Virus record (IMG/VR): IMGVR_UViG_3300018073_000007
Location: 1-48,754 of that record
Source: a virus
Taxonomy: Duplodnaviria; Caudoviricetes
Reading direction: 5' to 3' (one strand)
Length of the DNA stretch: 48,754 nucleotides
This document shows positions 3,433 to 44,889 of the stretch, in pieces. The notes beneath the pieces are model-generated. The model saw only the letters and a list, made by a program, of their open reading frames with translations. It had not been told where the DNA came from and did not search any database. Position 1 is the first letter of the stretch, and every line of letters begins with the position of its first letter. Position numbers and translations under genes: made by a program.

Positions 3433-3458
3433 CCCTCACTCTACAGAATGTGACATCG

Positions 3459-13119: not shown

Positions 13120-13122
13120 AAG

Positions 13123-13151
13123 TTGATTCCTGCCCACTTGTGCCCTAGAAT
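13123..13151 (+). promoter_or_regulatory. SigA-type promoter for a leaderless gene
   Basis: TTGATT-17 nt-TAGAAT, 6 nt before ATG 13158. Confidence 0.7.
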
Positions 13152-13157
13152 GGTGGC

Positions 13158-13643
13158 ATGCCAACCAAGCGCCCGCGACAATCCACCCTCGACCTAGAGA
13201 CAGAGGTAGGCGACTACCTGCAGAACCGGTCGATGCGCGAGCGCTCCGAGTACCGCGAGAAGAAGGGCAAGGAAGCCCTCATGGGCGTCCTAGAGCAGGC
13301 CGGCGAGCTACAGGAGGGTGGTCACCGCATTCTCCGACTGACCGAGCCGGTGCCCTACGCCGAGTACAAGGGCGGCAAGGCCAAGGACCGCAAGGTCACG
13401 GCCATCCGCCGCGTCCGTCGCTCATCCCAGCGGCTCAACGAGGTCGCTGCCATGGCGCTGTTGACACGCAAGAACCTCCTGGCGGAATGCACCCGCACCG
13501 AGGTGGTGCTGGACGAGGACGCACTGCTCGCTGCCATCTTCGAAGGCAAGCTGACCGACGCCGAGGCGTCTTCGATCTACGACGAGAGCGAGAACTTCGC
13601 CTTCTTCCTGGTCGATGACGACGACCCCGACGACGCTGACTAA
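13158..13643 (+). CDS. Hypothetical protein
   Basis: Long ORF with phage codon usage; acidic C-terminus. Confidence 0.8.
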   Translation: MPTKRPRQSTLDLETEVGDYLQNRSMRERSEYREKKGKEALMGVLEQAGELQEGGHRILRLTEPVPYAEYKGGKAKDRKVTAIRRVRRSSQRLNEVAAMALLTRKNLLAECTRTEVVLDEDALLAAIFEGKLTDAEASSIYDESENFAFFLVDDDDPDDAD

Positions 13644-13861: not shown

Positions 13862-13874
13862 CGTGGGGTAGTGT
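13845..13874 (+). promoter_or_regulatory. SigA-type promoter
   Basis: TTGCCT-18 nt-TAGTGT. Confidence 0.5.
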
Positions 13875-15848: not shown

Positions 15849-17880
15849 GTATCCGCACGTCCTTCTCACCGCGGAGGAAGTCAGGGGGGCTGTCGACCTC
15901 CTCCGCGGTGAGTCGATGTTCGTCATCGACCTGGAGACGACTGGCCTCGACACCCAGACCAACGAGATGGTGTGGTGCGGCCTCGGCTGCACCGCCCAGT
16001 CGTTCCTGATCCCCTGCGGTCACCCCAAGGGGGTCAGGCTCACGGTGGGAGGCAAGGCCAAGACGCCGGCCTCGGTGCTTTGGAACGACGAGCGCGGCCT
16101 GACCCCGACCGGCAAGCCGTCGATGCGGATGGTCGAGCACGTTGTGCCGGCGACCTACGCCCCGCCACCCAAGCAGCTGTTCCCCTACCAGGTGGCCGAG
16201 TTGATCGAACCCCTGCTGTTCAGCGACCGGGCGAAGCTCAACCACCACCTGAAGTTCGACCTGGAGACGATCGCCAAGTACTACGGCAAGATCCCACCTG
16301 GTCCCTACCACGACACCCTCGTTGTGCAGCACGTCATCGATGAGTCACTCCCTCAGTACGGGCTGAAGGAGTTGACGATCGACTGGTTCCAGCCGAAGGA
16401 CCGCAAGAAGTGGTACCCGTCGATGGGCAAGGCCGGCATCGAACGCTTCGGCCTGGATGAGATCGCCTCGTACCTCAACAAGGACCTCACCTACACCCGG
16501 TACCTCTTCACCAGGCTGTGGCCCAAGCTGATCCGCCGCGGCCTGCTGAAGGTCTACGACTTCGAAATGAGCATGTACCCGGTGCTCATGGACATGGAGT
16601 CGGCCGGCTTCCCGATCGACCTCACCGCGATGGAGAAGGTGGGCGTCGAGTTGACCGACTCCATCGCCCGGATCGAGAAGGAGGTGGGCGAGTTGATCGG
16701 TGACGAGATCCCGATGACCAACCTCGCCACCAAGCGCTACGTCCTGTTCGGTGAGGTGGAGAAGGGCAAGGAGACGCCGGTCGGTGTCAACGGTCACCCA
16801 TTGGAGCCTCAGGGCCTGGTCCCCCTCAATCGCACAGCCAAGACTGACGTCGCCCAGGTGAACAAGGCGGTGCTGGAGCGCTACGCCAACAGCAACGAGG
16901 TGGCCCGCCTGTTCCTGGAGTGGTCGGCCTACGAGAAGCTGCGCGGCACCTTCGTCGTCGGCTTCGACAAGTACCTGTCGCGCCGGGACTCCGACCTGCC
17001 CCGGCTGCACACCAGCTTCAAGCAGCACGGCACGGTGACCGGCAGGTTCTCAGCGGAGAAGCCCAACCTCCACCAGATCCCGAAGTCTTCGGTCATTCGC
17101 GAGTTGTTCATCGCCGGTCCAGGTCACGTCCTCATCGTGGCCGACTACGACCAGATCGAACTGCGCGTGGCCGGCTACGAGTCGGGCGACCCCAACATGC
17201 TGGTCGTCTTCAAGCGGGGTGACGACGTCCACAAGCAGGCCGCGGCAGCCATGTGGAACATCCCCCTCACCAAGGTCACCGACGAGCAGCGGGCGGTCGG
17301 CAAGACCCAGAACTTCGCCATCATCTACGGGGCCGGCGTCAACAAGATCGCCTACGTGGCCAAGTGCTCCAAGCGTCGGGCGCAGAAGCTCATCGACGGC
17401 TACTACGAGATGTTCGGCGGGCTGGAACCCTGGAAGAAGCGGGTGCTGTACGAGGCCCGTGACCGTTGCGACCCGACCAGCCCCTCGACCGACCCACCTA
17501 CGATCATCATCCCCCCCTTCGGCAGGCTGCGCCGGCTCCCTGACCTGATGAACTACTACAAGGGCGAGGAGTGGATGCGCTGGCGGGCCGAGCGCCAGGC
17601 CATCAACGCCCTCGTACAGGGGTTCGCCAGCTACATCACCAAGATGGCGATGCTGGACATGCACAAGTGGATATCGGGATATCCAGCGCAGATGGTGCTG
17701 CAGGTACACGACGAGATCATCGTGCGGTGCGAGGAGGCCTACGCCGAGGAGGTCCTCGGGCTGGTGTCCCACACCATGTCCAACGTCCGTGCTCTCGACG
17801 GGTCACCCATCCTGGGCGAGGTCCCGCTTATCGTTTCCAGCAAGGTCGGGTACTCCTGGGCTGCAGCGAAGGGGAAATGA
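15841..17880 (+). CDS. polA: DNA polymerase I (family A, 3'-5' exonuclease + polymerase); first ATG at 15916, probable true start ACG 15841
   Basis: DLETTG, TGRFS, PNLHQIP, ADYDQIELR, KTQNFAIIYG and QVHDE motifs. Confidence 0.93.
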   Translation, partial: TSRYPHVLLTAEEVRGAVDLLRGESMFVIDLETTGLDTQTNEMVWCGLGCTAQSFLIPCGHPKGVRLTVGGKAKTPASVLWNDERGLTPTGKPSMRMVEHVVPATYAPPPKQLFPYQVAELIEPLLFSDRAKLNHHLKFDLETIAKYYGKIPPGPYHDTLVVQHVIDESLPQYGLKELTIDWFQPKDRKKWYPSMGKAGIERFGLDEIASYLNKDLTYTRYLFTRLWPKLIRRGLLKVYDFEMSMYPVLMDMESAGFPIDLTAMEKVGVELTDSIARIEKEVGELIGDEIPMTNLATKRYVLFGEVEKGKETPVGVNGHPLEPQGLVPLNRTAKTDVAQVNKAVLERYANSNEVARLFLEWSAYEKLRGTFVVGFDKYLSRRDSDLPRLHTSFKQHGTVTGRFSAEKPNLHQIPKSSVIRELFIAGPGHVLIVADYDQIELRVAGYESGDPNMLVVFKRGDDVHKQAAAAMWNIPLTKVTDEQRAVGKTQNFAIIYGAGVNKIAYVAKCSKRRAQKLIDGYYEMFGGLEPWKKRVLYEARDRCDPTSPSTDPPTIIIPPFGRLRRLPDLMNYYKGEEWMRWRAERQAINALVQGFASYITKMAMLDMHKWISGYPAQMVLQVHDEIIVRCEEAYAEEVLGLVSHTMSNVRALDGSPILGEVPLIVSSKVGYSWAAAKGK

Positions 17881-26935: not shown

Positions 26936-27204
26936 GTGATGATGCTGCCGGCGACGGCCTGGAGAAGCTGTCGAACGAGCAGCTGATTCGTCTCCTTCGA
27001 CGCGCTCTCAACACGCGGGAGCAGCTGTCCCACCAGATCGGTGCCGTCTTCGCTGAGAACGTGGACCTGCGCGGTGTGATCCAGGAGCAGTCAGCAGAGA
27101 TCGAACAGCTGCGCGCCCCGCCCGATGTGGAACCCCACCCCGATGTGGAACCCCACCCCGATGTGGAACCCCACCCCGAGGTGTTGGGCGACGTAGCCTC
27201 GTAG
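26932..27204 (+). CDS. Small coiled-coil protein with (PDVEPH)x3
   Basis: ATGA overlap; heptad pattern. Confidence 0.65.
   Translation: MSDDAAGDGLEKLSNEQLIRLLRRALNTREQLSHQIGAVFAENVDLRGVIQEQSAEIEQLRAPPDVEPHPDVEPHPDVEPHPEVLGDVAS
27121..27174 (+). repeat. 18-bp tandem repeat, 3 copies
   Basis: CCCGATGTGGAACCCCAC three times, then a partial copy. Confidence 0.95.
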
Positions 27205-27206
27205 TG

Positions 27207-27542
27207 ATGGCTGCTCATGAGAGCCTGAGCGACGTGCAGTTTGAGTACCGGCACTACCCGCCGTCCGAATCAGGTATCTCATTCGATCAGCACAAGGTGA
27301 TCGCCAAGCGTGCCGGCAGCGAGGTCGGCCACATGTCGTGGAGCCACAAGGGAGTCCACTTCATCCAGGCCTTGGAACCTCGACGTGGCATCGGCACGGC
27401 CCTTTGGAACGAAGGACACCGCCTGGCCTCCGAGAACCCGGGGATCGTCAAGCCTGCTCACAGCGCTGACAGAACCGATTCCGGTGATGCCTGGGCACGT
27501 AGTGTTGGTGGGCGACTCCCACGACGTAGGAAAGAGGCGTGA
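27207..27542 (+). CDS. GNAT-fold-like small protein
   Basis: RRGIGTALW resembles the acetyl-CoA-binding motif A. Confidence 0.6.
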
Positions 27543-28264
27543 TGGCCCGAGGACTGAACACCGCCCTCCATCCCAACCGGCAGGTCGGTCGCGGAGCATT
27601 CCCGAAGGGAGCAGGGGACCCTCGCCCTCCCGGCCCGCCTCCTGGTGACATGAACACGCCAGAGGACCTGGCGTCCTTCATGGCGTCGGGTCGGTCGACC
27701 TCCCCCGACATGCGGGGCGCGTACGTTGGTGGTCTGGCCGGCACGGGTGGTGCCATGGCCTCCAGCCCTCATTCTGTCGGCCAGGCCGGGATACCTGGGT
27801 GGGGCGGCGCTGCTGCTGGCAGTGCCAGTGGCTTAGGTGGTGGCTTGGGCGGCAGGAACGGCATGTTCGGTGCTGGGGCGATGGCGGGCACGGGCAACGG
27901 CACCCAGGCCACTCCAGGCCACGCCACCCCACCACTCACGGCTGGCGGATTGCCGGGGACGGGCGGGGCGACGAACACCTCCGGTCCTCTCACCGTTTCC
28001 GGTGGGATCCCCAAGTCATCCGCGAACGCTCCCTCATCACTACCGCCTGGAGGTGCCCCCATGGCAACACAGCCCGCTCAGTTCTCCCCGTACACCGTCC
28101 AGAGTGGTGACACACTGTGGGACATCGCTGAACGGACGACGGGCAGCGGGCAGAACTGGCGTGACATCTACGAGGCCAACCAGGGTGTGATCGGTGGCGA
28201 TCCGAACCTGATCATGCCGGGTCAGCAGTTGAACCTGAGCAGCGGGTTGCCGCAGACACGGTGA
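27542..28264 (+). CDS. Gly/Pro-rich protein with C-terminal LysM domain
   Basis: [13 protein letters not shown]...W..IY.AN...PNLI.PGQ.L. Confidence 0.88.
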
Positions 28265-28272
28265 CGTGACCG

Positions 28273-28839
28273 ATGGCCCAGCAGTCATACCAGGACTGGT
28301 ACCGGAACAACACCTACCCGGCTGGCACCGCGCCCTTCCGCGTCGCTGAGACATTCGGGCCGGCACCTCAGGGCCACGACCCTCTCGACAACCTCCGCAT
28401 GTACTGGCGGCGCACGCCAGAGGCCACCTACCCTGACGGCTACCTGGGGACGGTCCCCTCCCGCCGTGGGGACCGTCTCTTGGATGGACTGAAGTCCCGC
28501 GCCACCAATCGGCCGACGACCCGGGGCGTCCACAAGGGCGAGCGCATCGACTCCAGGGACTACCACTGGCCGGCCGAGTTCAACCTGTGGACCGGGCTGC
28601 AGTACCAGGCGGCGGGCATCAAGTTCTTCCCGCCTGGCATCGGCCAGTTCCTCCAGGATGAGCGGTACCCCACCGACCGGCGCAACGTCGGTCCTCGTAG
28701 TGTCCCGACCGGCAACCGCAACGCCAACACTGGCGGCGCACCCGGTGGTCCCGATCGCCGGCCTGTTCTGATAGGTCAAGCCCCTCCGTGGGGCATCCGT
28801 TCAAATCCAGGTATGGCCGTGCCATATCCAGGGAGGTAA
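28273..28839 (+). CDS. Hypothetical phage protein
   Basis: YPDGYLGT..SRR.DRLL..RGVHKGERID block; typical codon usage. Confidence 0.8.
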   Translation: MAQQSYQDWYRNNTYPAGTAPFRVAETFGPAPQGHDPLDNLRMYWRRTPEATYPDGYLGTVPSRRGDRLLDGLKSRATNRPTTRGVHKGERIDSRDYHWPAEFNLWTGLQYQAAGIKFFPPGIGQFLQDERYPTDRRNVGPRSVPTGNRNANTGGAPGGPDRRPVLIGQAPPWGIRSNPGMAVPYPGR

Positions 28840-28842
28840 GTC

Positions 28843-29436
28843 ATGCCAGAGAACCTTGGGGCGGCCTACGGGATGAGGTCCACTCGCAAGCAGGACCCGA
28901 CGTCACACTTTCAACCCCGGCCCAACGGGCCAATGACACCAGGTGGTCCCAACATGCAGGGACCATGGCCTGGGTTGAGCGGCGGCACCAAGGGTCCAGG
29001 TGGTGGCGGGTTCGTGGGCACGATGCCCACCGTGGGCGGGACGCCCAAGTACCAGCCTCGCGTCGGTCAGGGTGGCGTCGGTCAGCCCGGTGGCATGATC
29101 CCGCCAGGCGGGTACCCGCGCAACGGTGGCGTGCCAGGTGGTGGGTTCGTCAGCGGTGGCACCAAGTCCCCCCGTCCCCGCGGCGGCGGGTACGACGGCA
29201 GCGGGATCAACCCAGGCGGCGGCATCATGAACCCGCGGCCCACTCCTGGGATGAACTCCGGTGGTGGCATCATGAACCCGCGGCCCACCTCTCCTCCAAG
29301 CGGGCCAATCATGGCTCCTCCCAGCGCTGGTGGACCGCGTGTGGGTGGCGGCAAGCAGCCAAGGCCGCTCGGTTCGATGCCCATGCCCAAGGGCGGAGGC
29401 ATGTTGCAGCCGAAGCTGCCAAGGGTCAAGCGATAG
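28843..29436 (+). CDS. Gly/Pro/Met-rich basic low-complexity protein
   Basis: GGAGG SD; GGGIMNPRPT twice. Confidence 0.7.
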   Translation: MPENLGAAYGMRSTRKQDPTSHFQPRPNGPMTPGGPNMQGPWPGLSGGTKGPGGGGFVGTMPTVGGTPKYQPRVGQGGVGQPGGMIPPGGYPRNGGVPGGGFVSGGTKSPRPRGGGYDGSGINPGGGIMNPRPTPGMNSGGGIMNPRPTSPPSGPIMAPPSAGGPRVGGGKQPRPLGSMPMPKGGGMLQPKLPRVKR

Positions 29437-29481
29437 GGCGATATCACCTGGCCAAAGGACCTGATCTCGTAAGGTAGTGCC

Positions 29482-29580
29482 ATGAGCGATGCACCTGACG
29501 ACGACACCGTCGATGAGGGTGAGATCCCTGACGAGGAAGTCACGGACCCCTACGACCCCCTGGAACCCGACGAGTCCTGA
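29482..29580 (+). CDS. 32-aa acidic micro-ORF coupled to endolysin (not in ORF track)
   Basis: TAAGGT 6 nt before ATG; stop TGA shares a base with the lysin ATG. Confidence 0.55.
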   Translation: MSDAPDDDTVDEGEIPDEEVTDPYDPLEPDES

Positions 29581-30629
29581 TGGCCGTCACCTACCCGGAC
29601 GGCTACAACAGCCCGCCGACGCAGCGGACCATCGAAGAGGTCTTCGCCCGCGCCTCGGTGAAGATGCTCCACCCCGAGTACAAGAAGCGCTGGCATGGGC
29701 TGATGCTCGCCAGCGAGGGCAAGCTCGGCATCGGTGGTGCCGGCCGCTCGACGGCCCAGCAGCAGGCGGTGTTCCTCGACCGCCACTACGTCGTGACCTC
29801 GGGCGGCTGCTGCATGTGGCAGGGCAAGCGCTACCAGCTGAAGAAGGGTGCGGCCCACGCTGCGCCGCCGTTGCGCTCGTTCCATGAGAACATCGTCCAG
29901 GGCTACTCCGCTGCGGTCGATGCTGTCGGTGACCTGAAGTGGGCGGCGCTCAACTGCGAGCGGTTCGGGCTGGAGCAGGCCACCTGGGGTGGCGAGGTGT
30001 GGCACTTCCAGTTCACCGAGTTCCCGCACAGCGTGTCGGCGTGGATCAAGGCCGGGTCGCCACCGCCGATGAAGTGGGCGATCCCACTGCCGCCGCCGAC
30101 CACGACTCCACCTCCCACCACGACGCCGCCGCCGACCACGACACCGCCGCCCACCACCAACTGGGCCACCGACCTGATGAACAAGATGCCCGTGCTGAAG
30201 AAGGGAAACCAGGGCGTGCCGGTCAAGCGCTGTCAGCACTTCCTCGCCCTCGCCGGCCAGATGGACCCGGCCAACATGGGGAACTTCGACGGCGTGTTCG
30301 GCTCAGGTACCGAGAGCGCGCTCAACCGCTTCCTCGCCACCAAGGGTGCCCAGCAGGACGGCATCTGCGACCGCGACTGCTGGGACTGGTTCATGGAGGC
30401 CGGCAATGGCATCCCCAACCTCGTCAAGGGCAGCACCGGCATGGACGTGCAGCGCATGCAGCGCATGCTCTCGGCCAACGGGAAGATGGACCCCTCCAAC
30501 CGGGCCAACTTCGACGGTGTGTTCGGTAGTGGGACCGAGACGGCGCTGAAGTCCTTCCAGTCGTCCAAGGGACTGACCGCCGATGGGCAGTGCGGCCAGA
30601 AGACGTGGACGAGTCTGCTGAACGGCTGA
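29580..30629 (+). CDS. Endolysin: M15-type Zn peptidase, Pro/Thr linker, two peptidoglycan-binding domains
   Basis: RS..QQ, SFH...AVD and EVWH; (PPPTTT)n; DGVFGSGTE.A twice. Confidence 0.9.
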   Translation: MAVTYPDGYNSPPTQRTIEEVFARASVKMLHPEYKKRWHGLMLASEGKLGIGGAGRSTAQQQAVFLDRHYVVTSGGCCMWQGKRYQLKKGAAHAAPPLRSFHENIVQGYSAAVDAVGDLKWAALNCERFGLEQATWGGEVWHFQFTEFPHSVSAWIKAGSPPPMKWAIPLPPPTTTPPPTTTPPPTTTPPPTTNWATDLMNKMPVLKKGNQGVPVKRCQHFLALAGQMDPANMGNFDGVFGSGTESALNRFLATKGAQQDGICDRDCWDWFMEAGNGIPNLVKGSTGMDVQRMQRMLSANGKMDPSNRANFDGVFGSGTETALKSFQSSKGLTADGQCGQKTWTSLLNG

Positions 30630-30844
30630 CGACCTTTGAGGTCTACTTCACGATCCTGCGTCGCTTCGTCGTGTTCGGCCTCGGCTGCTGGGTCATCGGC
30701 AATGCCTTGGTGAACCCGGAGGAGCGCCTCGGTCAGTTGGCGGTCGGCATGGTGATGGTCGGCGTGCTGCCGATTGAGAACATCTTCTCCTGGAAGGTCA
30801 GCCGACGTGTGACCGAGGTGGAGGAGAAGCCTCATAGCGCTTAG
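30626..30844 (+). CDS. Two-TM membrane protein, holin candidate (start uncertain: 30590, 30605 or CTG 30626)
   Basis: Directly follows lysin; two hydrophobic helices and a charged C-terminus. Confidence 0.55.
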   Translation: MTTFEVYFTILRRFVVFGLGCWVIGNALVNPEERLGQLAVGMVMVGVLPIENIFSWKVSRRVTEVEEKPHSA

Positions 30845-30890
30845 GGCCTGAGTGATACCGTTCGATCAGTCATCCCTGAAAGGAACCTCC

Positions 30891-31076
30891 ATGAGCGATC
30901 CCGAGCCGAACGAAGAAGGCGAAGCGGAAGCAGTCACCGCCGTCCCAGCGGGGTACATCCCCGAGTCCTCTGCAGCCCTTGGCGAGACGGTCGTTGACGG
31001 TGACATCGTCATCGCTGACGCCGAAGGCAACCCAGTCGAGGTCCAGGAACAGCCTGGGACCGAAGACGACGACTGA
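30891..31076 (+). CDS. Small highly acidic protein
   Basis: AAGGA SD before ATG 30891; no Lys or Arg. Confidence 0.65.
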   Translation: MSDPEPNEEGEAEAVTAVPAGYIPESSAALGETVVDGDIVIADAEGNPVEVQEQPGTEDDD

Positions 31077-31090
31077 GTCGGAGATGATGG

Positions 31091-31501
31091 GTGGCCGTTC
31101 GCGTCGATAGGGAGGTCTTCGACCCCACCGCGGTCGCGAGCGGCTCGTCCTCCGGTGCCCAGATCATCGAGGACGGCGTACGCCAGAATCCTTGGCAGCC
31201 CCGCCCTTTCGCCACCAAGAACGAGTTCGTCGTCTCGGAGGCGCTTCGGCTGATGTCGATACCAGCCGAGGAGATTCGCCAGATCAGGCCAGTCGTGCCA
31301 CAGCAGCTGTTCCCGCCCACCGAGGGCTACGACCACCCACCGCTGACGATCGATGACATCTTGGACACCAACCGCTGGGAGCCTCAGTACCGCAGCTGGG
31401 TGTCGGGGATCACCCGTCAGCCGCGTCGGGTCGACTTCGTAGAGGACATGTGGTCGGGCACCCTCCGAGGCTTCACCGCCTCACCCAACCCTGCTGGATA
31501 A
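31091..31501 (+). CDS. Hypothetical protein
   Basis: GGAG SD; fills the operon. Confidence 0.7.
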   Translation: MAVRVDREVFDPTAVASGSSSGAQIIEDGVRQNPWQPRPFATKNEFVVSEALRLMSIPAEEIRQIRPVVPQQLFPPTEGYDHPPLTIDDILDTNRWEPQYRSWVSGITRQPRRVDFVEDMWSGTLRGFTASPNPAG

Positions 31502-31511
31502 GGAGATATCC

Positions 31512-31763
31512 ATGGCCGTCAATGACAGTCGCAGCATGATCGCTGACTTCCACCAGGGAGTCATCGACAACACCTACATGGCGATCGTCCCCAACCGGGG
31601 CAACGTCGAGATCCCGCCGTACGACCGCAAGACGTGGCCGACCTACCTGCAGGCCGAGAAGCACGTCGACCCGCCGTTCCTGGAGGCCCACCTCGGCCGC
31701 GCCCTGCTGCCACGCGAGGCCCGCAACGGCGATCAGGACCCCAGCGGCGACCTTCGCTACTGA
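31512..31763 (+). CDS. Hypothetical protein (MAVNDSRS N-terminus)
   Basis: AAGGAG SD. Confidence 0.8.
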   Translation: MAVNDSRSMIADFHQGVIDNTYMAIVPNRGNVEIPPYDRKTWPTYLQAEKHVDPPFLEAHLGRALLPREARNGDQDPSGDLRY

Positions 31764-31766
31764 GCC

Positions 31767-31973
31767 ATGACCAAGCGACAGGACGCGTTCCTTGTTGGAA
31801 CAGGTGCCGAGCCACCTGAGACGTTCTGCTGCGCTGAATGCGGCTATCAGTCCGCCAACCGCAAGAACTTCCGGCGTAGTGAGGACGGTGAGGCCCGTAC
31901 CTGCACCACCGGGCACTACGAGAAGAACGGCGAGTTGAAGCGCCAGAAGAACGCCTACGCGAGGCCACGCTGA
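31767..31973 (+). CDS. Small Zn-binding protein
   Basis: CAECG...CTTGH. Confidence 0.7.
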   Translation: MTKRQDAFLVGTGAEPPETFCCAECGYQSANRKNFRRSEDGEARTCTTGHYEKNGELKRQKNAYARPR

Positions 31974-32194
31974 TGGCTGACTCCAGCGGCCCGTATGATC
32001 CTTCGGGAGCGCTGACCCACCTGGTCACGCACTTCCAGAGCCGATCCATCACCGCCGATCACTTGGAACGAATGCATCCCTCCGTGCGCGACCACTACGT
32101 CAAGATGGCAGGCCTGAACTCCATGGCGATGTCCGAGCAAGGTTGGAGCGCCGTGATCGACCACATGCGAAGGGGAAAGTCATCCCACGGTTAG
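31973..32194 (+). CDS. Hypothetical protein
   Basis: TGATG coupling. Confidence 0.65.
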   Translation: MADSSGPYDPSGALTHLVTHFQSRSITADHLERMHPSVRDHYVKMAGLNSMAMSEQGWSAVIDHMRRGKSSHG

Positions 32195-32772
32195 TCACCT
32201 GTCACCTTTGCAAGGTCCTGCAGCGGATGCCCGACGTGCCCACAGGCGTGCCATACGTGCCGGCGCGCCTGGAGTGGAAGGACGGGGCCGACTACGTCTA
32301 CAAGGACCCCGACACCAACCTCGCGGTGATGGTGCCGGCGTACGACCCCGTGCTGGAGGACTTCGTCACCCGGCACCAGCACGGCCAGGACGACTCGATC
32401 TTCATCAACGGCGCGATCCAGGTTTGGAACATCGACCAGGACACTTGGAACGCCGTGGACGTGGTCAAGCAGATCAGCCAGGAGCTTCACGACCAGACCA
32501 ACACCTGGTACGAGGACCGCGACACCTATCGCGAGGGCGCGACGGCCTGCTACAACGACCACGGCAACCCGACCACCGACACTGGCTGTCCCGACTTCAT
32601 GGAAGACTCCAAGCGGATCGGTGACACCCACTACCGCGACGACGACGGCCATCGCCGGCAGATCCCTCGCCGGCACCAGATGTACCTGTGCCACTTGTGC
32701 CCCTACTACCAGAGCTACGTCCTGGTGGAGATGCGGCGCAAGTCGGGCGTCTACAAGGAAATCAACCGGTGA
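32182..32772 (+). CDS. Cys/His-rich hypothetical protein (start ATC 32182 or TTG 32143)
   Basis: RLVTCHLCK...CYNDH..C.D...YLCHLCP. Confidence 0.75.
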   Translation: MPRLVTCHLCKVLQRMPDVPTGVPYVPARLEWKDGADYVYKDPDTNLAVMVPAYDPVLEDFVTRHQHGQDDSIFINGAIQVWNIDQDTWNAVDVVKQISQELHDQTNTWYEDRDTYREGATACYNDHGNPTTDTGCPDFMEDSKRIGDTHYRDDDGHRRQIPRRHQMYLCHLCPYYQSYVLVEMRRKSGVYKEINR

Positions 32773-32775
32773 GCC

Positions 32776-33705
32776 ATGTCGGCCAACGAGCACCTTCAGC
32801 CCCGCCTCTTCGATCCAGGTCCGAAGAGGCCACTCTCCCCTGAGGAGAAGGGGCCGAGTGCGTGGTACGAGCACCACGCCGCTGAAGGCACCCTGGCGCA
32901 CCACGCCACCTTCCGTGACGACTGGCGCAGCGCCCCGACTGTCCACGCCGGCACGATCGGCCAGGCCTCGTACCGTCTCGATTCGGTCGCTACCACCCTG
33001 AAGCATTCGCCGCTTCAGGCCCAGTCGTACTACGACGCCAGCACGCCCGAGGACGGCTACGACGACGATGGTGGCGACGAGGAGCCGATCACCCACACCG
33101 GCCGGGTGTACGCCTTCCGCATGTCCGGTGGCGTCCACTCCAGCGTGATGAGCGACAAGGACGTCAACGACGCCGACTACCTCCACCAGCTGCACAGCGG
33201 AGCCGAGGACTGGGAGATCAGCCGCTCGGTGAAGGAGTCGCTTGGAACGGCAGGGTTCCACCTCCAGCAGCAAGTCCAACACTTCCCCGAAGACGAGCTA
33301 CCGGAGACGACGGCGACGAAGGCCTTGGAACGAGGCAAGGCGCTGCCATATCGCAATACGGTGGAATCCGAACCGAACATAGCTGCCGAGCGGGAACCCG
33401 CAGGGCCGAGAGAGTCACCCCTCGTGCCTCGTCAGTCGGTGCGGACCTGGGAGGACGACGTGCTCGCCAATCCGCACGCCTCGGAGTTGGCGCAGAACTA
33501 TGCCCGCCAGCGCGTGGAGAACCGCTCGGCTGGGTCGGTGGCGTTCCCCTCCACGAAGGTGACACCAGGCAGCGGTAGTACACAGGCTCCGCTGGATCAG
33601 TCGTTTGGCGGCTTCAAGACGTTTGGCGGTTCCACCAAAGTGACCAAGCCCGGGCGTCGCACGCTCAACCAGATGCAGTTCACCATCGATCCGGCCAACA
33701 AGTGA
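32776..33705 (+). CDS. Hypothetical protein
   Basis: 309-aa ORF; HAGT..QA..R motif; coupled to next gene. Confidence 0.8.
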   Translation: MSANEHLQPRLFDPGPKRPLSPEEKGPSAWYEHHAAEGTLAHHATFRDDWRSAPTVHAGTIGQASYRLDSVATTLKHSPLQAQSYYDASTPEDGYDDDGGDEEPITHTGRVYAFRMSGGVHSSVMSDKDVNDADYLHQLHSGAEDWEISRSVKESLGTAGFHLQQQVQHFPEDELPETTATKALERGKALPYRNTVESEPNIAAEREPAGPRESPLVPRQSVRTWEDDVLANPHASELAQNYARQRVENRSAGSVAFPSTKVTPGSGSTQAPLDQSFGGFKTFGGSTKVTKPGRRTLNQMQFTIDPANK

Positions 33706-34151
33706 CCGGCATCGTCGTCATCACCATCGAGGGCGTGCTCGCCAACAGCGACGACCTTCGACAGGCCCAGCCGACCAAGCAGGCCAAGTTGATCTACGAC
33801 GGTCTGCGGTCCCAGCACAACACGCTCCTGCTGACCCGCGCCACCGAGGACATCGCCAAGTGGTGGCTGAAGCGCGAGTACATCCTTCAGTGGTCTTCAG
33901 TGCTGTCATATCCCGCTACCACGGCGTTCACCTGGGAGGCCTGGAAGTTGGACCAGCTGCGCGGCCTGCTCGCTGAAGGCTGGGAGGTGTTCGCCTTCGT
34001 CGACCGGTCGCCCGATCTCGTCGAGGAGGCGGTCAAGCTCGGAGTCATGGGGTTGTGCGTGTCATATCCGCATATGCCCCTCGGCTGGCGCGAGGCTGGA
34101 GTACCCCGGAGCTGGGAGGACATCGTGACTACAGTTGACTCTCAGCCGTAG
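33702..34151 (+). CDS. HAD-fold-like protein with degenerate motif I
   Basis: VITIEGVL, LLTR, WK and FVD correspond to HAD motifs I-IV but the nucleophile Asp is missing. Confidence 0.65.
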   Translation: MTGIVVITIEGVLANSDDLRQAQPTKQAKLIYDGLRSQHNTLLLTRATEDIAKWWLKREYILQWSSVLSYPATTAFTWEAWKLDQLRGLLAEGWEVFAFVDRSPDLVEEAVKLGVMGLCVSYPHMPLGWREAGVPRSWEDIVTTVDSQP

Positions 34152-34160
34152 GAGGTTGAC

Positions 34161-35369
34161 ATGGGCTTAGGCGACTTCTTGGGTGGTGCAGCCGAGTCAG
34201 TGGGTCACTGGGTCGGTGGTGTAGCTGAAGGTGTCGGGACCGTCGTCACCCACCTGGACGACATCGCCCGTGGTGCTGCCTGGGCCGTCAACCCGACCCA
34301 CTACGACGACATCGCCCGGGGCGTCGGCAACGCTGCCGAGTTCGTCGGTGAGCACCCCGGCCAGATTTGGGACACCGGCTTCGAAGTCGGTCGGTACCTC
34401 GTCAAGGATCAGCTGCTGGATCCGAAGAACCTTCTCATCAACGCCGGCATGATCGGGTTGAGCGCTGCCACGGCCGGTGGTGCGTCGGGCATGATGGCCG
34501 CTCGGGTCGCCAACTGGACCCGCGAGGGCGTGGAGGCCATCCGTGGTGTCCGCGGCATCGAAGAGGTCGCCAGCGGTGCTCGGGCCATCGAAGGAGGCAT
34601 CGGTGCGGCCGAAGCGGCCGAGGCTGCCTCTACCGCTGCTCGCTCGGCCGGCCGGGTCGAGGGCTTCATGCAGCGGGCCGACAAGCTCCTGGGTGGTCCC
34701 GGGATGGGGGAGCGAGCACGCGAGCGGCTGACCGGTGAGGCGTACGGCCTCGTCAACCGCAGTCGCAACGCTCTGGCAGCGAACGTGGCCGAGCGGGGTG
34801 GACTCGCCGGCCAGATCGCCTCCCAGTCGATCAGCGTCGGCAGGGCACGGCCGATCATCGAGGGCAGCCGTGTCGGTCAGGGCGTCTCCGACGTGATGTG
34901 GCTGAACCGCCAGAAGGATCGCATCGAGAGCACGGCCGGCACGGTCAGCAAGCTCGGCCAGGAAGGCCGCGACCTCACCCAGGCCGTCACCAATCCGCTG
35001 GGCTTCGGCCTCCGCAAGGCCAAGGAGCACGGTTACGACGTCGAGGGCATGGCTCGCGAAGAGATTGGGAAGCTGGGCGAGAAGGCGGCGATGAAGGCGA
35101 TGAAGGGCGGCAAGCAGAAGCCCAAGCGCCCATCGGCATATGGGGATATGGCCGGTGGCGGTGGCGGTTACGCCCACTACTCGGCGGCCGACGGCGGGGC
35201 CGTCGGCGGAGCCGTCGGCGGCACGGCCCGGGTGACTCATGAGGGTGAGGAGACGTACTCCTCGCAGATCAACCCGATGGCCGGCCGGCGTCGCAGCAAC
35301 TTCTACGCCGGCACCAACGAGACGTACGGCGGTCAGCAGGCCGACCGTGACGAGTTGCTGGGCGTCTGA
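34161..35369 (+). CDS. Gly/Ala-rich helical protein (possible virion/ejection protein)
   Basis: GGAGG SD; TH.DDIARG repeat; amphipathic helices. Confidence 0.75.
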   Translation: MGLGDFLGGAAESVGHWVGGVAEGVGTVVTHLDDIARGAAWAVNPTHYDDIARGVGNAAEFVGEHPGQIWDTGFEVGRYLVKDQLLDPKNLLINAGMIGLSAATAGGASGMMAARVANWTREGVEAIRGVRGIEEVASGARAIEGGIGAAEAAEAASTAARSAGRVEGFMQRADKLLGGPGMGERARERLTGEAYGLVNRSRNALAANVAERGGLAGQIASQSISVGRARPIIEGSRVGQGVSDVMWLNRQKDRIESTAGTVSKLGQEGRDLTQAVTNPLGFGLRKAKEHGYDVEGMAREEIGKLGEKAAMKAMKGGKQKPKRPSAYGDMAGGGGGYAHYSAADGGAVGGAVGGTARVTHEGEETYSSQINPMAGRRRSNFYAGTNETYGGQQADRDELLGV

Positions 35370-36340
35370 TGGTCACCCCCTCACAGCAGGCCTACGACAT
35401 CCAGCGCGCCCGTGAGCGCGCCAAGACCCAAGGCCACGCTGATCGTCGTGCCATCGACGCCGACTACCGCAGTCAGGCAGCCAAGGCCAAGGCCAAGGCC
35501 AAGGCCAGGGGAGCCAGGAAGGGCTTCTGGGAGGGCCGGCCCAACGACGAGGGCACCGGCTGGATGAGCACCCAGCGCGGCGCTGCCGAGGGCCAGGCTT
35601 CCTGGACCAAGGTCCATCCGGGCCAGGCGGCTCGCCGGCCCAACGAAGTCGGCTTCCTCACCGGCAAGGTCTTCGGGATGATCCAGGATCGCCTCGACCG
35701 GCCCAAGACCAGTTCGGGGCTGCAGGCCGGTCAGGGTCAACCGCTACCGCCTCCGGTGATGCCACCGGGACTCCCTCCTCGCGCACCTGCCGGGGGCGGT
35801 AGCCCAGCTGGGGGCGGCAGCCCTCCTGCTGGTCCCCAGCTGGGTCAGCCGATGAAGCACCACTGGCTCAACGTCAAGCCCAGTTCGGGCCTGCCGGCCG
35901 GTGGCGGCGGGCCGTCACCAACGGCCGGCGCTCTCGGCACAGGGCAGCTAGGGCTGCCCTGGGGTGGTCGCCAGCCAGGCCAGCAGCGCGTGCTCACCGG
36001 TCAGCGCCCCCGCGGTGCTCTTGGAACAGGATCGCCAGCGCTCGGAAGGGGACCAGTGATCGACACCACGGCTCGCGACTCACCCAGCAACTACGGCAAC
36101 AAGTCGCCCGTGCTGGAGTTCGATGACGCTCCTGCTGACTCCGAGCACATGCGCTGGGCCAAGAAGGCCGGCGAGCGCGTGGCCTTCGCTGTCGACCCCG
36201 CCAACAAGATCCCGCTGGTCGACTCGCGGCTGGAGGGCACCAACCGTGGTGAGGCGCAGAAGGCCAAGTACAACGCGGCGTGGGCGAAGTCCGGGACCAG
36301 CATTCCCTCGGTCCACGGTGACGAGCCTCTCGAATACTGA
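35369..36340 (+). CDS. Basic Gly/Pro-rich low-complexity protein
   Basis: TGATG coupling at both ends; (AK)n tract; PAGGG repeats. Confidence 0.75.
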   Translation: MVTPSQQAYDIQRARERAKTQGHADRRAIDADYRSQAAKAKAKAKARGARKGFWEGRPNDEGTGWMSTQRGAAEGQASWTKVHPGQAARRPNEVGFLTGKVFGMIQDRLDRPKTSSGLQAGQGQPLPPPVMPPGLPPRAPAGGGSPAGGGSPPAGPQLGQPMKHHWLNVKPSSGLPAGGGGPSPTAGALGTGQLGLPWGGRQPGQQRVLTGQRPRGALGTGSPALGRGPVIDTTARDSPSNYGNKSPVLEFDDAPADSEHMRWAKKAGERVAFAVDPANKIPLVDSRLEGTNRGEAQKAKYNAAWAKSGTSIPSVHGDEPLEY

Positions 36341-37713
36341 TGCAGCTGTTCTTCGCCGGGGCCGAGGTCCCCTCTCACCTCAACGTGCTGCGCCAGTGCG
36401 GCGTGCAGCGCGTCGCGGTGAGCGTCTCCAACCTGGCGCGCAACTCTCACGACCTGGAGCACTGGGCCTCGCGTGATCGCCTCGGTGGGCTGGAGTGGGT
36501 GCTCTACGCCGATGGTCCCAACGTCCCGGTGGGGCCGGCGCTGGAGGTCCTCCACGGCGCTGAAGTGCAACCAGAGATCGTCACCGGACCCATATCGTGG
36601 TATGAGACGACGTGGTTGTCGAACAGCGATCTCCTGTTCCTGCCGATCTGGGACGCCACCGATCCCACCGTCCTGCGGGACTACACCGAGAACTACGACG
36701 GCGTCACCCTGCCGGATTCCGTGGTCGACAACCCAGTGGCCGTGCGACAGGCCCGGGCGTCGGTCAAGCGGCTGGGCCAGCTGGCGGCGCTCACCGGGCG
36801 GTCGAAGGGGATCGAGCGTTTCGACACCCTTGTATCGAGCGCCTGGTGGGCAGTCCAGAAGTACGGCGAGACGCAGGTGTGGGCAGCCAACCGACTGGTG
36901 CGGCTCAACGCCGAGGACAAGGCCAACAAGCGCGCCCGCTACGCCGAGGCCATCGCAGCGATGGGCGTCAACATGGACAAGATCGCCGTCGATGACCCGA
37001 CCGAGACGGTCACTCTGGCGGTGCGCTCCTGGCAGGCCTTGGAACAGCATCTGACCACCTCTCCGCACTCTCTGGCGGTCGTTCCCGACCAGATAGTTAC
37101 CAATGGGCGTGCTCAGTCAGTGCGACCAGTCCAGGTCACCCCACCAGACGAAGTTGCCAATGGGGTGGACCAAAGCCGGCACCTGGTGTTGCCAGTGATC
37201 GGAATGACCAGGCATGGCGTGACAGGCCACGACGCTGACGGCAACGAGTTCGAAGACAGCGTCTCCACGATCGACGTGAAGCCCGAGAGCCTGCGCCAGT
37301 GCAACACCTGCGCCCTCGCTCTGACCTGTCCCAGCCACTACCCAGGTGCCGCCTGCAGCTACCAGATCCCTGTCGAGATCAAGACGAAGGTGCAACTGGT
37401 CAACGTGCTCCGGGCCGTGGCCGAGATCCAGACCCAGCGCGTGCTCATGGGCCGGTTTGCCGAGGAGATCCAGGGCGAACCCAATCCAGACCTGGGCAAG
37501 GAGATGGACCGGCTGTTCGCGATGGTGGAGCGCTGGCGCGCCATCGAAGACACCCGAGACACCATCAAGATGACCTTGGAGTCCAAGGGCGACACCCGTG
37601 CGGCGAACGGTGTGCTCTCTCGGCTGTTCGGCACCCAGGTGGGCCAGAACGCCATCCTGTTGGAGGAGCCGATCGACTCCAACGACATCATCGACCAGAT
37701 GACCGAGGACTGA
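36340..37713 (+). CDS. TGT/DpdA-like TIM-barrel (degenerate) + Cys cluster + helical domain
   Basis: Alternating beta/alpha N-half; FDTLVSSAW..YG; CNTC-x5-C-x8-C. Family call is tentative. Confidence 0.5.
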   Translation: MQLFFAGAEVPSHLNVLRQCGVQRVAVSVSNLARNSHDLEHWASRDRLGGLEWVLYADGPNVPVGPALEVLHGAEVQPEIVTGPISWYETTWLSNSDLLFLPIWDATDPTVLRDYTENYDGVTLPDSVVDNPVAVRQARASVKRLGQLAALTGRSKGIERFDTLVSSAWWAVQKYGETQVWAANRLVRLNAEDKANKRARYAEAIAAMGVNMDKIAVDDPTETVTLAVRSWQALEQHLTTSPHSLAVVPDQIVTNGRAQSVRPVQVTPPDEVANGVDQSRHLVLPVIGMTRHGVTGHDADGNEFEDSVSTIDVKPESLRQCNTCALALTCPSHYPGAACSYQIPVEIKTKVQLVNVLRAVAEIQTQRVLMGRFAEEIQGEPNPDLGKEMDRLFAMVERWRAIEDTRDTIKMTLESKGDTRAANGVLSRLFGTQVGQNAILLEEPIDSNDIIDQMTED

Positions 37714-37923
37714 GTTCAGTACCCCGATTGACGGGTCCCCGCCCTCCGCAGGGTGGGCGCCGGCGCCGAACATACGTTTGTCCCTTGATGGTCTACCAGG
37801 ACCTACGCCCTCTTACCTCGGTATGCCGGCGCATAACGCCTGACGCGTTTGCAGGCCCCGAGGGGCATATCGCCATATCCCAGGGGCTAGTTACCAACGT
37901 GCCGCCCGGCGGGGCGGACAGGC

Positions 37924-38373
37924 TCAGGCGCTCTTGACCTTGGGCTTCACGACGCGGCGGGCGTGAACCAGGTTGCCGTTGATCGGCTCGGCCGGCGCTG
38001 CGGGAACCACGGGAACTTCGCCCGTCTTCGCGGCGCGGGTGGCTGCACGCTTCTCCTTGGCCGCGGCCTTCTTGGCCTCGGCGGGACCAGCAATGTCGGT
38101 GCGCTGGATCACCAGGAACCCCGGCCCGGGCTGCCCGCACTTCTTGCAGATCACGTCGCTGTCGATGTGGCGCAGCTTGATCTTGGCTCCCCGGTTGGTC
38201 GCCCGTGTCCTGATGATCCGTTCCATCATCAGCGGGTGGCCGGGGAAGTCGACCCCTTGTTCCAGCTTCCAGATGTCCCCGTCGAACCAGTCGTCCCAGG
38301 GGTAGGTGTAGCTCCCGTCCGTACGACGCGGGCTTGACGACGCGAAGTCGAACTCTTTGAGCTTCTCGGACAT
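37924..38373 (-). CDS. Hypothetical protein, possibly DNA-binding
   Basis: GAGGAG SD before ATG 38373; YPWDDWFDG.IW.L..G.DF; basic tail. Confidence 0.75.
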   Translation of the reverse strand: MSEKLKEFDFASSSPRRTDGSYTYPWDDWFDGDIWKLEQGVDFPGHPLMMERIIRTRATNRGAKIKLRHIDSDVICKKCGQPGPGFLVIQRTDIAGPAEAKKAAAKEKRAATRAAKTGEVPVVPAAPAEPINGNLVHARRVVKPKVKSA

Positions 38374-38420
38374 GACACTCCTCAGTGGCGGTGGTGTGTT
38401 ACCCGTCACAGGGTAACGAC

Positions 38421-38987
38421 TTACACCTGGACGACTGTCATCTGGATGTAGAAGAAGATCGGCAGCAGGACCGAGGAGATGAGCAGCACCCACGGGATGC
38501 GGCCGAGCATCTTGTGGACCGGGCTGACCAGCCGGTAGAAGAAGCGGTGCTTGAACATGCTCTTGTCGACCAGCTGGCAGTAGGCGATGGCGAGTGCCGG
38601 CGTGACTACGAAGGTCTGCAGCAGCCAGCACCAGTGGATGATGGTCGGGTTGTTGGGCACATGCATCCCTGACGAGTCACGCAGTGACGTGAAGGGGTTG
38701 GTGTCCGGGTGGCCGATGCACAGAATCACGATCCACCACCAGACCACGGCTGTGCCCCACACCTTCCACATGGCCGACAGGAGGACCGCCTTGCCGGCAG
38801 CCAGCTGCCAGTCGCCTGTGCGCTCGTACCAGTTGCGGCCGATCCGCAGCATGACCGGGCCGAAGATCATCGACCAGATGGCGGCGCGGAGCTTGCGGAA
38901 CGCACCAGGCGTGAAGTACGGCTCCTGTCCGGGTCCGTTGCCCCAATGCTCGGGTGGTGCGTCTTGCCAGGCTGGCTGAATGCTCAT
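38421..38987 (-). CDS. Multi-pass membrane protein
   Basis: AAGGA SD; about four hydrophobic segments. Confidence 0.75.
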   Translation of the reverse strand: MSIQPAWQDAPPEHWGNGPGQEPYFTPGAFRKLRAAIWSMIFGPVMLRIGRNWYERTGDWQLAAGKAVLLSAMWKVWGTAVVWWWIVILCIGHPDTNPFTSLRDSSGMHVPNNPTIIHWCWLLQTFVVTPALAIAYCQLVDKSMFKHRFFYRLVSPVHKMLGRIPWVLLISSVLLPIFFYIQMTVVQV

Positions 38988-39024
38988 GGTCGGTCCTTAG
39001 TTTGTGGGGATTCCTGCTGACTAA

Positions 39025-39054
39025 ATCATACCCCCATCGAGTAACACATTGCAA
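39025..39054 (-). promoter_or_regulatory. SigA-type promoter (leftward)
   Basis: TTGCAA-18 nt-TATGAT on the minus strand. Confidence 0.65.
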
Positions 39055-39101
39055 CGCCTTACACCTGCTTGGAACACCTGTCGGTGATAATCTCCGCGCT
39101 T

Positions 39102-39380
39102 GTGAGTGGATCCCCACCAGATCGGGGCAACGACCCCAATCGCCGGCCAGTGCAGCCCCTGAACATGGTCAGGGGAGGGGGGATTTGCGACCCAGGTGAG
39201 AAGGGTGGGCACATCATCAAAGGATCGATGAAGCCGGCCGTGTGCATGCCCAACGTTGGAACAGACACCCGGCCTCGGTGGAAGCAGGCCGGCCAAGGTG
39301 TCAGCCCGCCATCACGGCACACGGTTCACTTCCTGCAGCACCGCAAGGGCGGCACGCCCTACGGCAAGCCGAATCGATAG
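39102..39380 (+). CDS. Possible small basic Pro/Gly-rich protein
   Basis: Fills the gap; stop overlaps the SD of the next gene; start uncertain. Confidence 0.4.
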   Translation: MSGSPPDRGNDPNRRPVQPLNMVRGGGICDPGEKGGHIIKGSMKPAVCMPNVGTDTRPRWKQAGQGVSPPSRHTVHFLQHRKGGTPYGKPNR

Positions 39381-39391
39381 GAGCTTGGAAC

Positions 39392-40336
39392 ATGGGATGG
39401 GGAACGCCACCGAGTTGGGGCAGCAACAGCAGCAAGAAGAAGACTGCGTCCACGATCAAGAAGAAGACCTCCCAAGGGGGGATGGCCGGAGAAGGCAAGA
39501 CCCCGGGAGGTCACGCCAGCGGCTCGGGCGGCGGTAAGGGGTCTTCCAACGGTCAGGGCGGCATGCCCTACAGCAACCCGTGGACGAAGTCGCCGCCGCC
39601 CAAGAGCAGCGGCGGTGGCTCCTCGGGTGGCGGCGGCGGTAGCTCCGGTGGCGGCTCTGGTGGTGGAGGCGGCGGTGGAGGAGGAGGAGGCGGCGGCGGT
39701 GGAGGCGGCGGTGGCCCTCGGATCGCCACCACGATGTACGCAGGCGTGAAGGCCAACACCAAGATCGACGCCGGCACGGGCAGCAAGATCGTCAACAAGG
39801 CCTTCGTCGCCCCGAAGTACAAGGCGGCGACCCAGGCGACGATCCACGACGCGCCCGAGAACGCTCACGCGCCGGCCGGCACCAAGAAGCTGTCCGACAC
39901 CTCGGATATCACCTACTACCGCAAGCCGGCCGCTGCGGTGACGCCGGCTGCACCCGTGGCACCCATCGGTGGGTACGCCCCCAACGGTGCCAACCGGTCG
40001 ACCCTGCAGCTTGGCTCCCTCCCGAGGGCCGGCTCGTCGCCCACCTTCCATCCAACAGTCATCCCGGCCCTTGGAACGGCTCCCTCCTCATCGGTCGGCG
40101 GGTCGCCTTCGTTCTCTCCGATGACCCAGCCGCGGCGTACGTTCGCCCCCAGCCGAGGTGTTGGAACAGTCGGTGGCAGCAAGTGGAACGGTGGCGTTGG
40201 CGGCAATGCTGCGACTAGCCCAGGCGGCGGATGGTCCCACCAGATCACACCTGGACCACCCTCTGTCGGCCCACGCATGGCGCACGACCTGGGTCCAGTG
40301 CGCTCCTACAAGGCAGGCCGCGGCTTCGGCCTCTGA
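39392..40336 (+). CDS. Basic Gly/Ser/Pro-rich protein with poly-Gly tract
   Basis: AGGAG SD; long Gly run with mixed codons at about 39659-39714. Confidence 0.75.
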   Translation: MGWGTPPSWGSNSSKKKTASTIKKKTSQGGMAGEGKTPGGHASGSGGGKGSSNGQGGMPYSNPWTKSPPPKSSGGGSSGGGGGSSGGGSGGGGGGGGGGGGGGGGGGGPRIATTMYAGVKANTKIDAGTGSKIVNKAFVAPKYKAATQATIHDAPENAHAPAGTKKLSDTSDITYYRKPAAAVTPAAPVAPIGGYAPNGANRSTLQLGSLPRAGSSPTFHPTVIPALGTAPSSSVGGSPSFSPMTQPRRTFAPSRGVGTVGGSKWNGGVGGNAATSPGGGWSHQITPGPPSVGPRMAHDLGPVRSYKAGRGFGL

Positions 40337-40494
40337 TGCAGGCCACCGCGGGGTCCCCGGTCAAGGTCATCTGGACGGTCAACGGGGTACAGCACGACCA
40401 TGTGCTGTACCACAGCTGGCCCGAGCCGAACTGCGCCTGGGACTGCTGCTGCCATCGACCGCCAGAGTTGAACCATAGGGAGATACCGAAATGA
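40336..40494 (+). CDS. Small Cys/His-rich protein
   Basis: TGATG and ATGA coupling. Confidence 0.5.
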   Translation: MQATAGSPVKVIWTVNGVQHDHVLYHSWPEPNCAWDCCCHRPPELNHREIPK

Positions 40495-44671: not shown

Positions 44672-44889
44672 TGACCATGATCGGAGCCACCCGCGAAGGG
44701 CGGGTGGCTCCGGTGTTCCACCACCGCGACCACTACACCTCGGCCGGCCGGCCCAAGCGCCCCCTCACCAGGGAGCAGGCCGAGGCGATTGCCGAGCGCC
44801 ATCCAGTGCGTGCGTACCGGTGCCCACAGTGTGACGAGTATCACACTGGACACCTCAGTAGGCCAGTTGCTGTTACTGCCCATTCGTGA
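44671..44889 (+). CDS. Small Zn-ribbon protein
   Basis: AYRCPQCDEYHTGH. Confidence 0.7.
   Translation: MTMIGATREGRVAPVFHHRDHYTSAGRPKRPLTREQAEAIAERHPVRAYRCPQCDEYHTGHLSRPVAVTAHS

Follow-up and report, generated by a model that had tools for sequence, protein, structure and literature searches.

Why should one heptamer recur on a single strand of a phage genome fragment? The question is raised by IMG/VR virus record IMGVR_UViG_3300018073_000007 (Duplodnaviria; Caudoviricetes), which we analyzed over its whole length of 48,754 nucleotides (hereafter, the window), and in which TTGGAAC is concentrated between positions 27372 and 40167. We found that TTGGAAC is a sequence-exact, chromosome-polarized word under selection over a region of 15–25 kb. 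The window is a whole contig without terminal repeats and is part of a BRock-like myovirus genome of about 115 kb; it covers less than half of the total, since near-complete uncultured relatives measure 107–118 kb.

TTGGAAC in the window

A preliminary description of the window had proposed that TTGGAAC forms an oriented cis-element array overlaid on coding DNA. All 15 plus-strand positions it gave, together with a lone copy at 16080, were present, and none was found on the minus strand. Compared with the 16 plus-strand copies in the whole window, dinucleotide shuffles (100 shuffles) gave a mean of 2.61 and a maximum of 7. The domain at 27372–40167 contains 15 exact copies, all on the plus strand. 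When codons were shuffled synonymously within the genes of 27000–40400 (n = 1500; one intergenic site was kept fixed), the mean was 2.2 and the maximum 6, versus 15 in the real sequence, and domain-wide and genome-wide codon pools gave 1.6–1.7 expected copies. TTGGAAC was also the top 7-mer of this interval (log10 P = −7.6; best 7-mer over 30 shuffles, −3.9). Counting as an opportunity any place where a synonymous change could make TTGGAAC, 14 of the 26 opportunities in plus-strand genes of the window domain were realized, versus 0.6 expected. The enrichment thus survives codon-preserving nulls at the gene, domain, and genome levels. The absence of copies from the minus strand, which that description also noted, is at chance level, as only 1.1–1.3 copies were expected (P(0) = 0.24–0.32); the effect is an excess on the plus strand with no depletion on the minus strand.

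The 13-kb domain originally delineated is real, but its spacing is uneven: two sites lie at 27.4 kb, a gap of 4.4 kb follows, and 13 sites fall within 31.8–40.2 kb. The first pair (27372 and 27404; 27372–27410, plus strand) is in the open reading frame (ORF) 27204–27542. Six sites (31795, 32063, 32424, 32445, 33242, and 33325; 31795–33331, plus strand) are held in all three codon phases by ORFs 31767–31973, 31973–32194, 32143–32772, and 32776–33705. Single plus-strand sites follow at 36021–36027, in ORF 35369–36340, and at 37039–37045, inside the DpdA/TerS-like gene 36340–37713 discussed below. The last five (39069–40167, plus strand), of which 39069 is intergenic and 39256, 39385, 40071, and 40161 are in ORF 39242–40336, form a sharp right edge of the domain. 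The lone copy in the DNA polymerase gene (16080–16086, plus strand) is at background level. The use of all three codon phases and of uncommon codons, noted at the outset, was borne out for the 14 genic sites among the 15 (rare codons TTG, GAA, GGA, CTT, and GTT). Conversely, a purine following the word, which holds for 14 of the 15 window sites, is not a feature of relatives (4 of 8 sites in genome G001 and 12 of 29 in G012). The GTGGAAC copies at 27121, suggested to add to the array at its left edge, belong to a coding tandem repeat, and this word is not enriched (14 plus and 21 minus copies in the core regions of 10 genomes). The repeat itself (27121–27183) consists of 3.5 copies of an 18-bp unit, with two copies fewer in a related strain (run X12). 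GAGTTGA in 1–27 kb was considered as a second array and rejected, as it represents Glu-Leu codon pairs.

Polarity and exactness of the word

Synonymous opportunities were pooled over 13 of 17 genomes, leaving out G006 (no array), G016 (outgroup), and G013 and G014 (poor gene calls); genes were taken from a simple self-trained caller, which recovered 64 of the 69 hand-picked window genes. In plus-strand genes of the domain, 114 of 266 opportunities were realized (11.4 expected). In minus-strand genes of the domain, several of which are conserved families that are minus-oriented in four to eight genomes, the chromosome-plus word was realized at 28 of 67 opportunities (2.3 expected), versus 1 of 37 for the mRNA-sense word (2.6 expected). 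Outside the domain, realization was near background on both strands (26 of 563 opportunities vs. 24.2 expected, and 30 vs. 21.9 expected). Because the word stays in the chromosome-plus orientation inside minus-strand genes, TTGGAAC is a DNA-polarity signal that follows the chromosome strand and not gene sense. The oriented array initially proposed therefore holds up: a codon-aware null does not remove it, relatives have it too, and it tracks the chromosome strand. As for the functions suggested for it, RNA-level antitermination is disfavored because the word remains plus inside minus-strand genes, and its confinement to one region speaks against a Chi- or KOPS-like role.

The word is sequence-exact. 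When it was compared with its 21 one-letter variants in the core regions of 10 genomes, only TTGGAAC was skewed (122 plus and 5 minus copies), with a weak skew for TTGGAAG (33 and 10). Apart from the word itself, no column between −45 and +54 was conserved (113 sites). We found no helical phasing of neighboring sites (Rayleigh R = 0.09, 62 spacings), and no clear difference from controls in the RNA hairpin context around the sites. GGAAC is the −35 box of promoters of the extracytoplasmic function (ECF) type. We rejected a promoter reading of this type, as there was no −10 box at a fixed spacing and distances to the next start were scattered.

Distribution among relatives

Oriented like the window, plus/minus counts of TTGGAAC were 8/1 in G001, 12/1 in G002, 13/1 in G003, 20/3 in G004, 11/0 in G005, 14/1 in G007, 28/11 in G008, 20/5 in G009, and 26/5 in G011. 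In G010, where the domain is truncated, the count was 5/8, and G006 (2/1) was an exception among the relatives. We placed the array on a tree of 47 distinct proteins of PHROG 887, the family of gene 36340–37713, from loci of at least 10 kb. One clade of 13 (support 1.0) contained all 11 loci with at least five plus copies, and none of the 34 loci outside the clade had more than two copies. The clade members without a full array are L046, in which it is weak (3/1), and L018 (G006), in which it is absent. The array-bearing loci form one clade of uncultured soil phages, with no independent origins, and G006 lost the array and retained the PHROG-887 gene. G006 keeps the gene order of the clade and realizes 2 of 27 synonymous opportunities. 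No convincing substitute word was found in G006, G016, or 86 kb of the phage GiJojo.

Individual sites turn over. In eight conserved genes, 14 of the 21 alignment columns hold TTGGAAC in one genome only. Two columns of the PHROG-887 gene have the word in common in four and six genomes, and the column of site 37039 carries it in 6 of 13 genomes. In addition, the mobile gene 27204–27542 has two sites in the domain, and a 76%-identical copy in G009 that lies outside the domain has none (a single pair). These findings suggest that, over many kilobases, a single cis-signal can occupy approximately half of the synonymous sites available to it.

Shape of the domain and a candidate genome end

Aligned on the start of gene 36340–37713 (14 genomes), site density rises from approximately −20 kb, reaches its maximum of 1.12 per kb in the 2-kb bin containing this gene, and falls after +8 kb. 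The realized fractions of opportunities (11 genomes) were 3% at −40 to −20 kb, 17% at −20 to −6 kb, 52% at −6 to +8 kb, and 14% at +8 to +18 kb. Avoidance beyond +18 kb was not significant (0 of 105 opportunities, 2.9 expected, P = 0.056).

The window ends before a point at the end of the Ku operon, where a tight same-strand cluster was found in four of the six genomes spanning the region. Tight clusters comprise seven sites in 0.64 kb in G008, six in 0.31 kb in G009, eight in 0.11 kb in G011, and three exact sites in 0.07 kb in G015. A few kilobases past the cluster, a long non-coding gap is present in six genomes at +17 to +23 kb; it follows a second helicase gene and contains a shared element and G/C runs (G008, 104456–105398; G009, 57962–59010; G010, 2997–3820; G011, 81509–82893; G002, 29422–30294; G007, 12017–13400; coordinates of G007, G009, and G011 are on the reverse strand). 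Its position matches the record ends of GiJojo and BRock, in which the homologous gene starts 16–17.5 kb from the record end, and the GiJojo terminase gene lies 24.6 kb from the other end. BRock has a 221-bp direct terminal repeat (PMC7453282). Judged by its position, the gap is a candidate terminus or origin. Contig ends within 10 kb of the PHROG-887 gene lay downstream in 20 cases and upstream in 4 (55 viral loci), an asymmetry to which we give little weight, given that these loci are related and that assemblies break at repeats as well.

The gene at the density peak

Gene 36340–37713 (plus strand), on which the density peaks, encodes a 457-amino-acid protein of PHROG 887 (queuine tRNA-ribosyltransferase-like), with the nearest annotated relatives in the Streptomyces myoviruses BRock, GiJojo, and their kin (23–26% identity). 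In an AlphaFold model (111 sequences, mean pLDDT 79), a barrel (residues 1–240) is followed by a linker, a beta-hairpin, a Cys4 segment, and two long helices, and the C-terminal strand/helix tail is poorly modelled. The barrel matches tRNA-guanine transglycosylase (TGT; Foldseek, E = 1.6e-6). We take the catalytic Asp pair of TGT/DpdA to lie in the DSG motif and the D-S-x-[ST]-W nucleophile motif, in place of which the window protein has LYADGP and DTLVSSAWW. None of the aligned BRock-like family members has the nucleophile Asp motif, and in the clade the DSG motif has been lost as well; homologues in Bacillus phage BCD7 and Bacteroides phage BS162P1 keep both. Judging from these motifs, the product is likely an inactive DNA-modifying enzyme.

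The C-terminal module, with predicted helices at 350–378 and 383–403 and then a strand/helix portion, is a separate gene in BS162P1. It weakly matches PHROG families of the terminase small subunit, TerS (10 of 48 members, best E = 0.0055), and a homologue, P0207, matches PHROG TerS with an E of 0.00049. Its layout resembles the helical-hairpin core, stalk, and tail that part of a published account (PMC9611059) gives for small terminases, which have a helix-turn-helix (HTH) at their N terminus where this protein has a TGT-type barrel. No labelled TerS gene was found beside TerL in G008, GiJojo, or BCD7, and unlabelled small genes lie there. These sequence matches hint, weakly, that the module is a TerS core, and 36340–37713 is a candidate small terminase and a candidate reader of the word. 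An alternative candidate reader is the small gene at 37924–38337 (minus strand), which is present in 11 clade genomes and not in the outgroup G016, and has a weak DUF7303/Alba-like structural lead.

A proposed packaging role and its alternatives

Among the functions suggested in the preliminary description, we favor packaging. With a probability of approximately 0.4, TTGGAAC is read by the packaging machinery, probably through the TGT-fold, TerS-like product of 36340–37713, marks DNA near the inferred genome end, and sets the direction of packaging. We favor this reading because the density peaks on that gene, the region adjoins the inferred end, and the pac site of P22 is situated within its terS gene (PMC9611059, in part). 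The word would be read on DNA, with its polarity, by something exact to one letter, and regional density, not the position of any site, would matter. Many weak sites could bring several TerS rings onto the DNA around the gene that encodes them, and the tight cluster, which lies closer to the end, could help pass the DNA to the large terminase. More specifically, the word may constitute a dispersed, directional 7-base barcode written in synonymous positions of any genes that happen to lie close to the packaging gene, and its reader may be an inactive 7-deazaguanine transglycosylase barrel that took the place of the HTH in TerS; this we consider doubtful. There is a real chance that the pattern represents a new mode of genome self-recognition. 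A literature search, conducted without most subscription journals or supplements, found no paper on TTGGAAC in phages and none on a heptamer in packaging.

Several observations weigh against packaging by this route. The gene is present without the array in G006 and without TTGGAAC in outgroup phages, and G002 and G007 have no tight cluster. The position of the terminus in the clade is itself inferred. The pac sites known so far are longer and occur singly, and in the closest cultured relatives the genome ends are short terminal repeats, not headful ends. As for the candidate reader, no HTH was predicted in the 36340–37713 protein, Pfam and PDB sequence searches gave no match to a terminase small subunit, and a Foldseek search with the C-terminal model gave no PDB match at E ≤ 0.001 and no TerS among the matches listed. 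With the same model, a BFVD structure search gave no TerS among the matches listed, the best 50 matches in a VIA structure search contained no TerS and only generic hairpins (Z ≤ 7.8), and an ESM Atlas search gave no named match; these structure searches decide little in either direction. Furthermore, in BCD7 the module is joined to a DpdA that seems active and is encoded in a complete preQ0 cluster, and it may therefore be a DpdA accessory domain.

It is possible, although we consider it unlikely, that TTGGAAC is recognized by a site-specific nickase, which would leave interruptions in one strand of the virion DNA like those of phages tf, T5, and phiKMV; such one-strand nicks could themselves serve packaging or ejection, and are compatible with a packaging role. 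The closest published pattern is that of phage tf, as described in part of PMC3517423: a single consensus recurs at 14 sites, all on the same strand and 11 of them in one genome half, and the phage has short terminal repeats. The sharp one-letter specificity, the chromosome polarity, and the short terminal repeats of BRock fit such a mechanism, and TTGGAAC, like such nick sites, is unevenly placed and concentrated in one part of the genome. However, nick positions in the LUZ24 group are similar between phages according to the portion of the published account available, whereas most TTGGAAC columns are confined to a single genome, and the eight sites of G011 within approximately 110 bp would be odd for nicks. 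In addition, no nickase family was recognized in the 64 window ORFs and the 114 of 165 called G008 genes scanned, among which nucleases of other kinds are present.

We regard as improbable that the sites are polar roadblocks or terminators, stoperator- or Nun-like, which would reduce rightward transcription of the late block and limit read-through from it into the convergent genes. Density is indeed high toward the 3′ end of the plus-strand block, the tight cluster lies at the 3′ end of the Ku operon immediately ahead of a non-coding gap that contains promoter-like sequence, and sites in minus-strand genes could act on antisense read-through. Nevertheless, background levels prevail in the other plus-strand operons, the structural and replication blocks among them, the word keeps its orientation whichever way a gene runs, the sites have no shared hairpin context, and the word is short for a repressor site. 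A role in replication or recombination near the genome end, either as Chi-like loading sites for RecA and the Cas4-like exonuclease or as helicase/primase sites, seems quite improbable as well. It would suit a window that encodes RecA, a Cas4-like exonuclease, two resolvases, Ku, DnaB, and DnaG, and the distant relative BCD7 has an evenly spaced, genome-wide one-strand heptamer; but signals of the primase or KOPS type should span the replicon, of which TTGGAAC covers approximately a fifth, no mirror-image enrichment was seen past the inferred end (9 vs. 5.6 expected on the minus strand), and replication genes do not hold the peak, which falls on the DpdA-like gene. Finally, that codon choice, amino-acid content, or local mutation bias yields the pattern as a by-product is largely refuted and very improbable: G006 is presumably viable without the array and rare codons are slightly more frequent inside the domain, but the array survives all three codon nulls, extends over all phases, both gene strands, and intergenic DNA, and is accompanied by no enriched one-letter variant other than TTGGAAG.

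With an exact 7-base word, a polarity, a domain, and a candidate reader defined, experiments on binding, nick mapping, and recoding become direct. The dpdA-like genes of BRock-type phages, suggested here to be inactive, may be the missing small terminase.

Other one-strand words and features of the window

Two other one-strand words were observed outside the clade. Bacillus phage BCD7 (NC_019515.1) carries 28 copies of GGTGATC, all on the same strand and none on its complement, with even spacing (mean 3.3 kb, coefficient of variation 0.44, minimum 1764 bp; none of 5000 random placements was as even), and 17 of the 21 GATC in the 50 kb examined sit in GGTGATC. DNA and RNA polarity are inseparable in this case because nearly all genes share the strand of GGTGATC. 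BCD7 is a cultured phage, so the pattern is testable. The outgroup genomes G017–G021 (loci L057, L060, L066, L068, and L088) carry CTT[A/C]ATA(CC) 31–47 times on one strand and 1–3 times on the other. The A or C variant is used per genome at homologous places, every coding copy is in frame 0 (38 of 38 and 35 of 35), and several intergenic copies lie 23–35 bases before starts. This word is promoter-like; we set it aside as an analogue of TTGGAAC because its copies are spread over the whole genome, track gene sense, and keep to frame 0 throughout.

Window genes encode baseplate proteins, DnaB, DnaG, a SNF2 helicase, PolA, RecA, the Cas4-like exonuclease, resolvases, and SpoVS, along with tail fibres, LysM and lysin proteins, the PHROG-887 protein, vWA/MoxR, and Ku. 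A nucleotide search of 27.0–34.9 kb against 50,697 phage records gave no match, an Rfam scan of the window gave no family, and no tRNA was found in the window. A repeated 19-base element ending in CCTCAGG (45897, 46510, and 48058) lies directly upstream of small Ku-operon genes. The words TAACACA and TATCACA and the box TGTGA-N6-TCACA, which we take to be CRP-like, are strongly over-represented in relatives (G004, G005, L027, and L029) and occur in the window at 13872, 13902, 18479, 39042, 44830–44845, and 48586; they are probably operator or promoter elements. A start resembling M-x-A-x-[ED]-[HN]-L-x-P-x-[QL]-F at the N terminus is common to unrelated ORFs (window, 32776 and 27204; G009, 77213 and 77593; G016, 88535–96527) and may possibly be a capsid-targeting signal. 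GCCGGC is approximately twofold over-represented compared with codon-shuffled nulls in all three parts of the window.

Comparison with known systems

The stoperators of mycobacteriophage L5 and the bacterial words Chi and KOPS are multiple, oriented, asymmetric words that override the local sequence. The orientation of L5 stoperators follows the direction of transcription, whereas that of TTGGAAC ignores it, as the minus-strand genes of the domain demonstrate. Chi and KOPS are skewed along the whole replicon; TTGGAAC, in contrast, is at background outside its domain in the near-complete genomes G007–G011 and is not replichore-wide.

The 36340–37713 product resembles phage DpdA/DpdA2 (PMC6884629, in part; BCD7 gp021) in its TGT fold, its membership of PHROG 887, and a C-terminal Cys4 and helical module. 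Unlike these enzymes, it belongs to a family in which the nucleophile Asp is absent throughout and the DSG motif is eroded in the clade, and no preQ0 genes were found in the window. BRock and BCD7 are not mentioned in the available portion of the main text of PMC6884629.

Similar to the pac sites of P22 and SPP1, TTGGAAC is an asymmetric signal in or around a gene that encodes a predicted helical-hairpin core, with linkage of signal and gene (PMC9611059 and PMC13595956, both in part). In contrast to those phages, with one 22-bp site, the clade has dozens of 7-bp sites over 15–25 kb without conserved flanks, and its nearest cultured kin have direct terminal repeats. How TerS discriminates phage from host DNA is described as an open question in the accessible section of PMC9611059, as is, in that of PMC3517423, why some phages nick one strand at fixed words.

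The latter sites, in tf/LUZ24, T5, and phiKMV, share with TTGGAAC a short exact consensus, approximately 8–14 or more copies, restriction to one strand, and uneven placement, and, within the same part of PMC3517423, they occur in lytic phages with short terminal repeats and have a proposed link to packaging. Unlike them, TTGGAAC turns over in position, peaks in density on one gene, and forms very tight clusters in some relatives.

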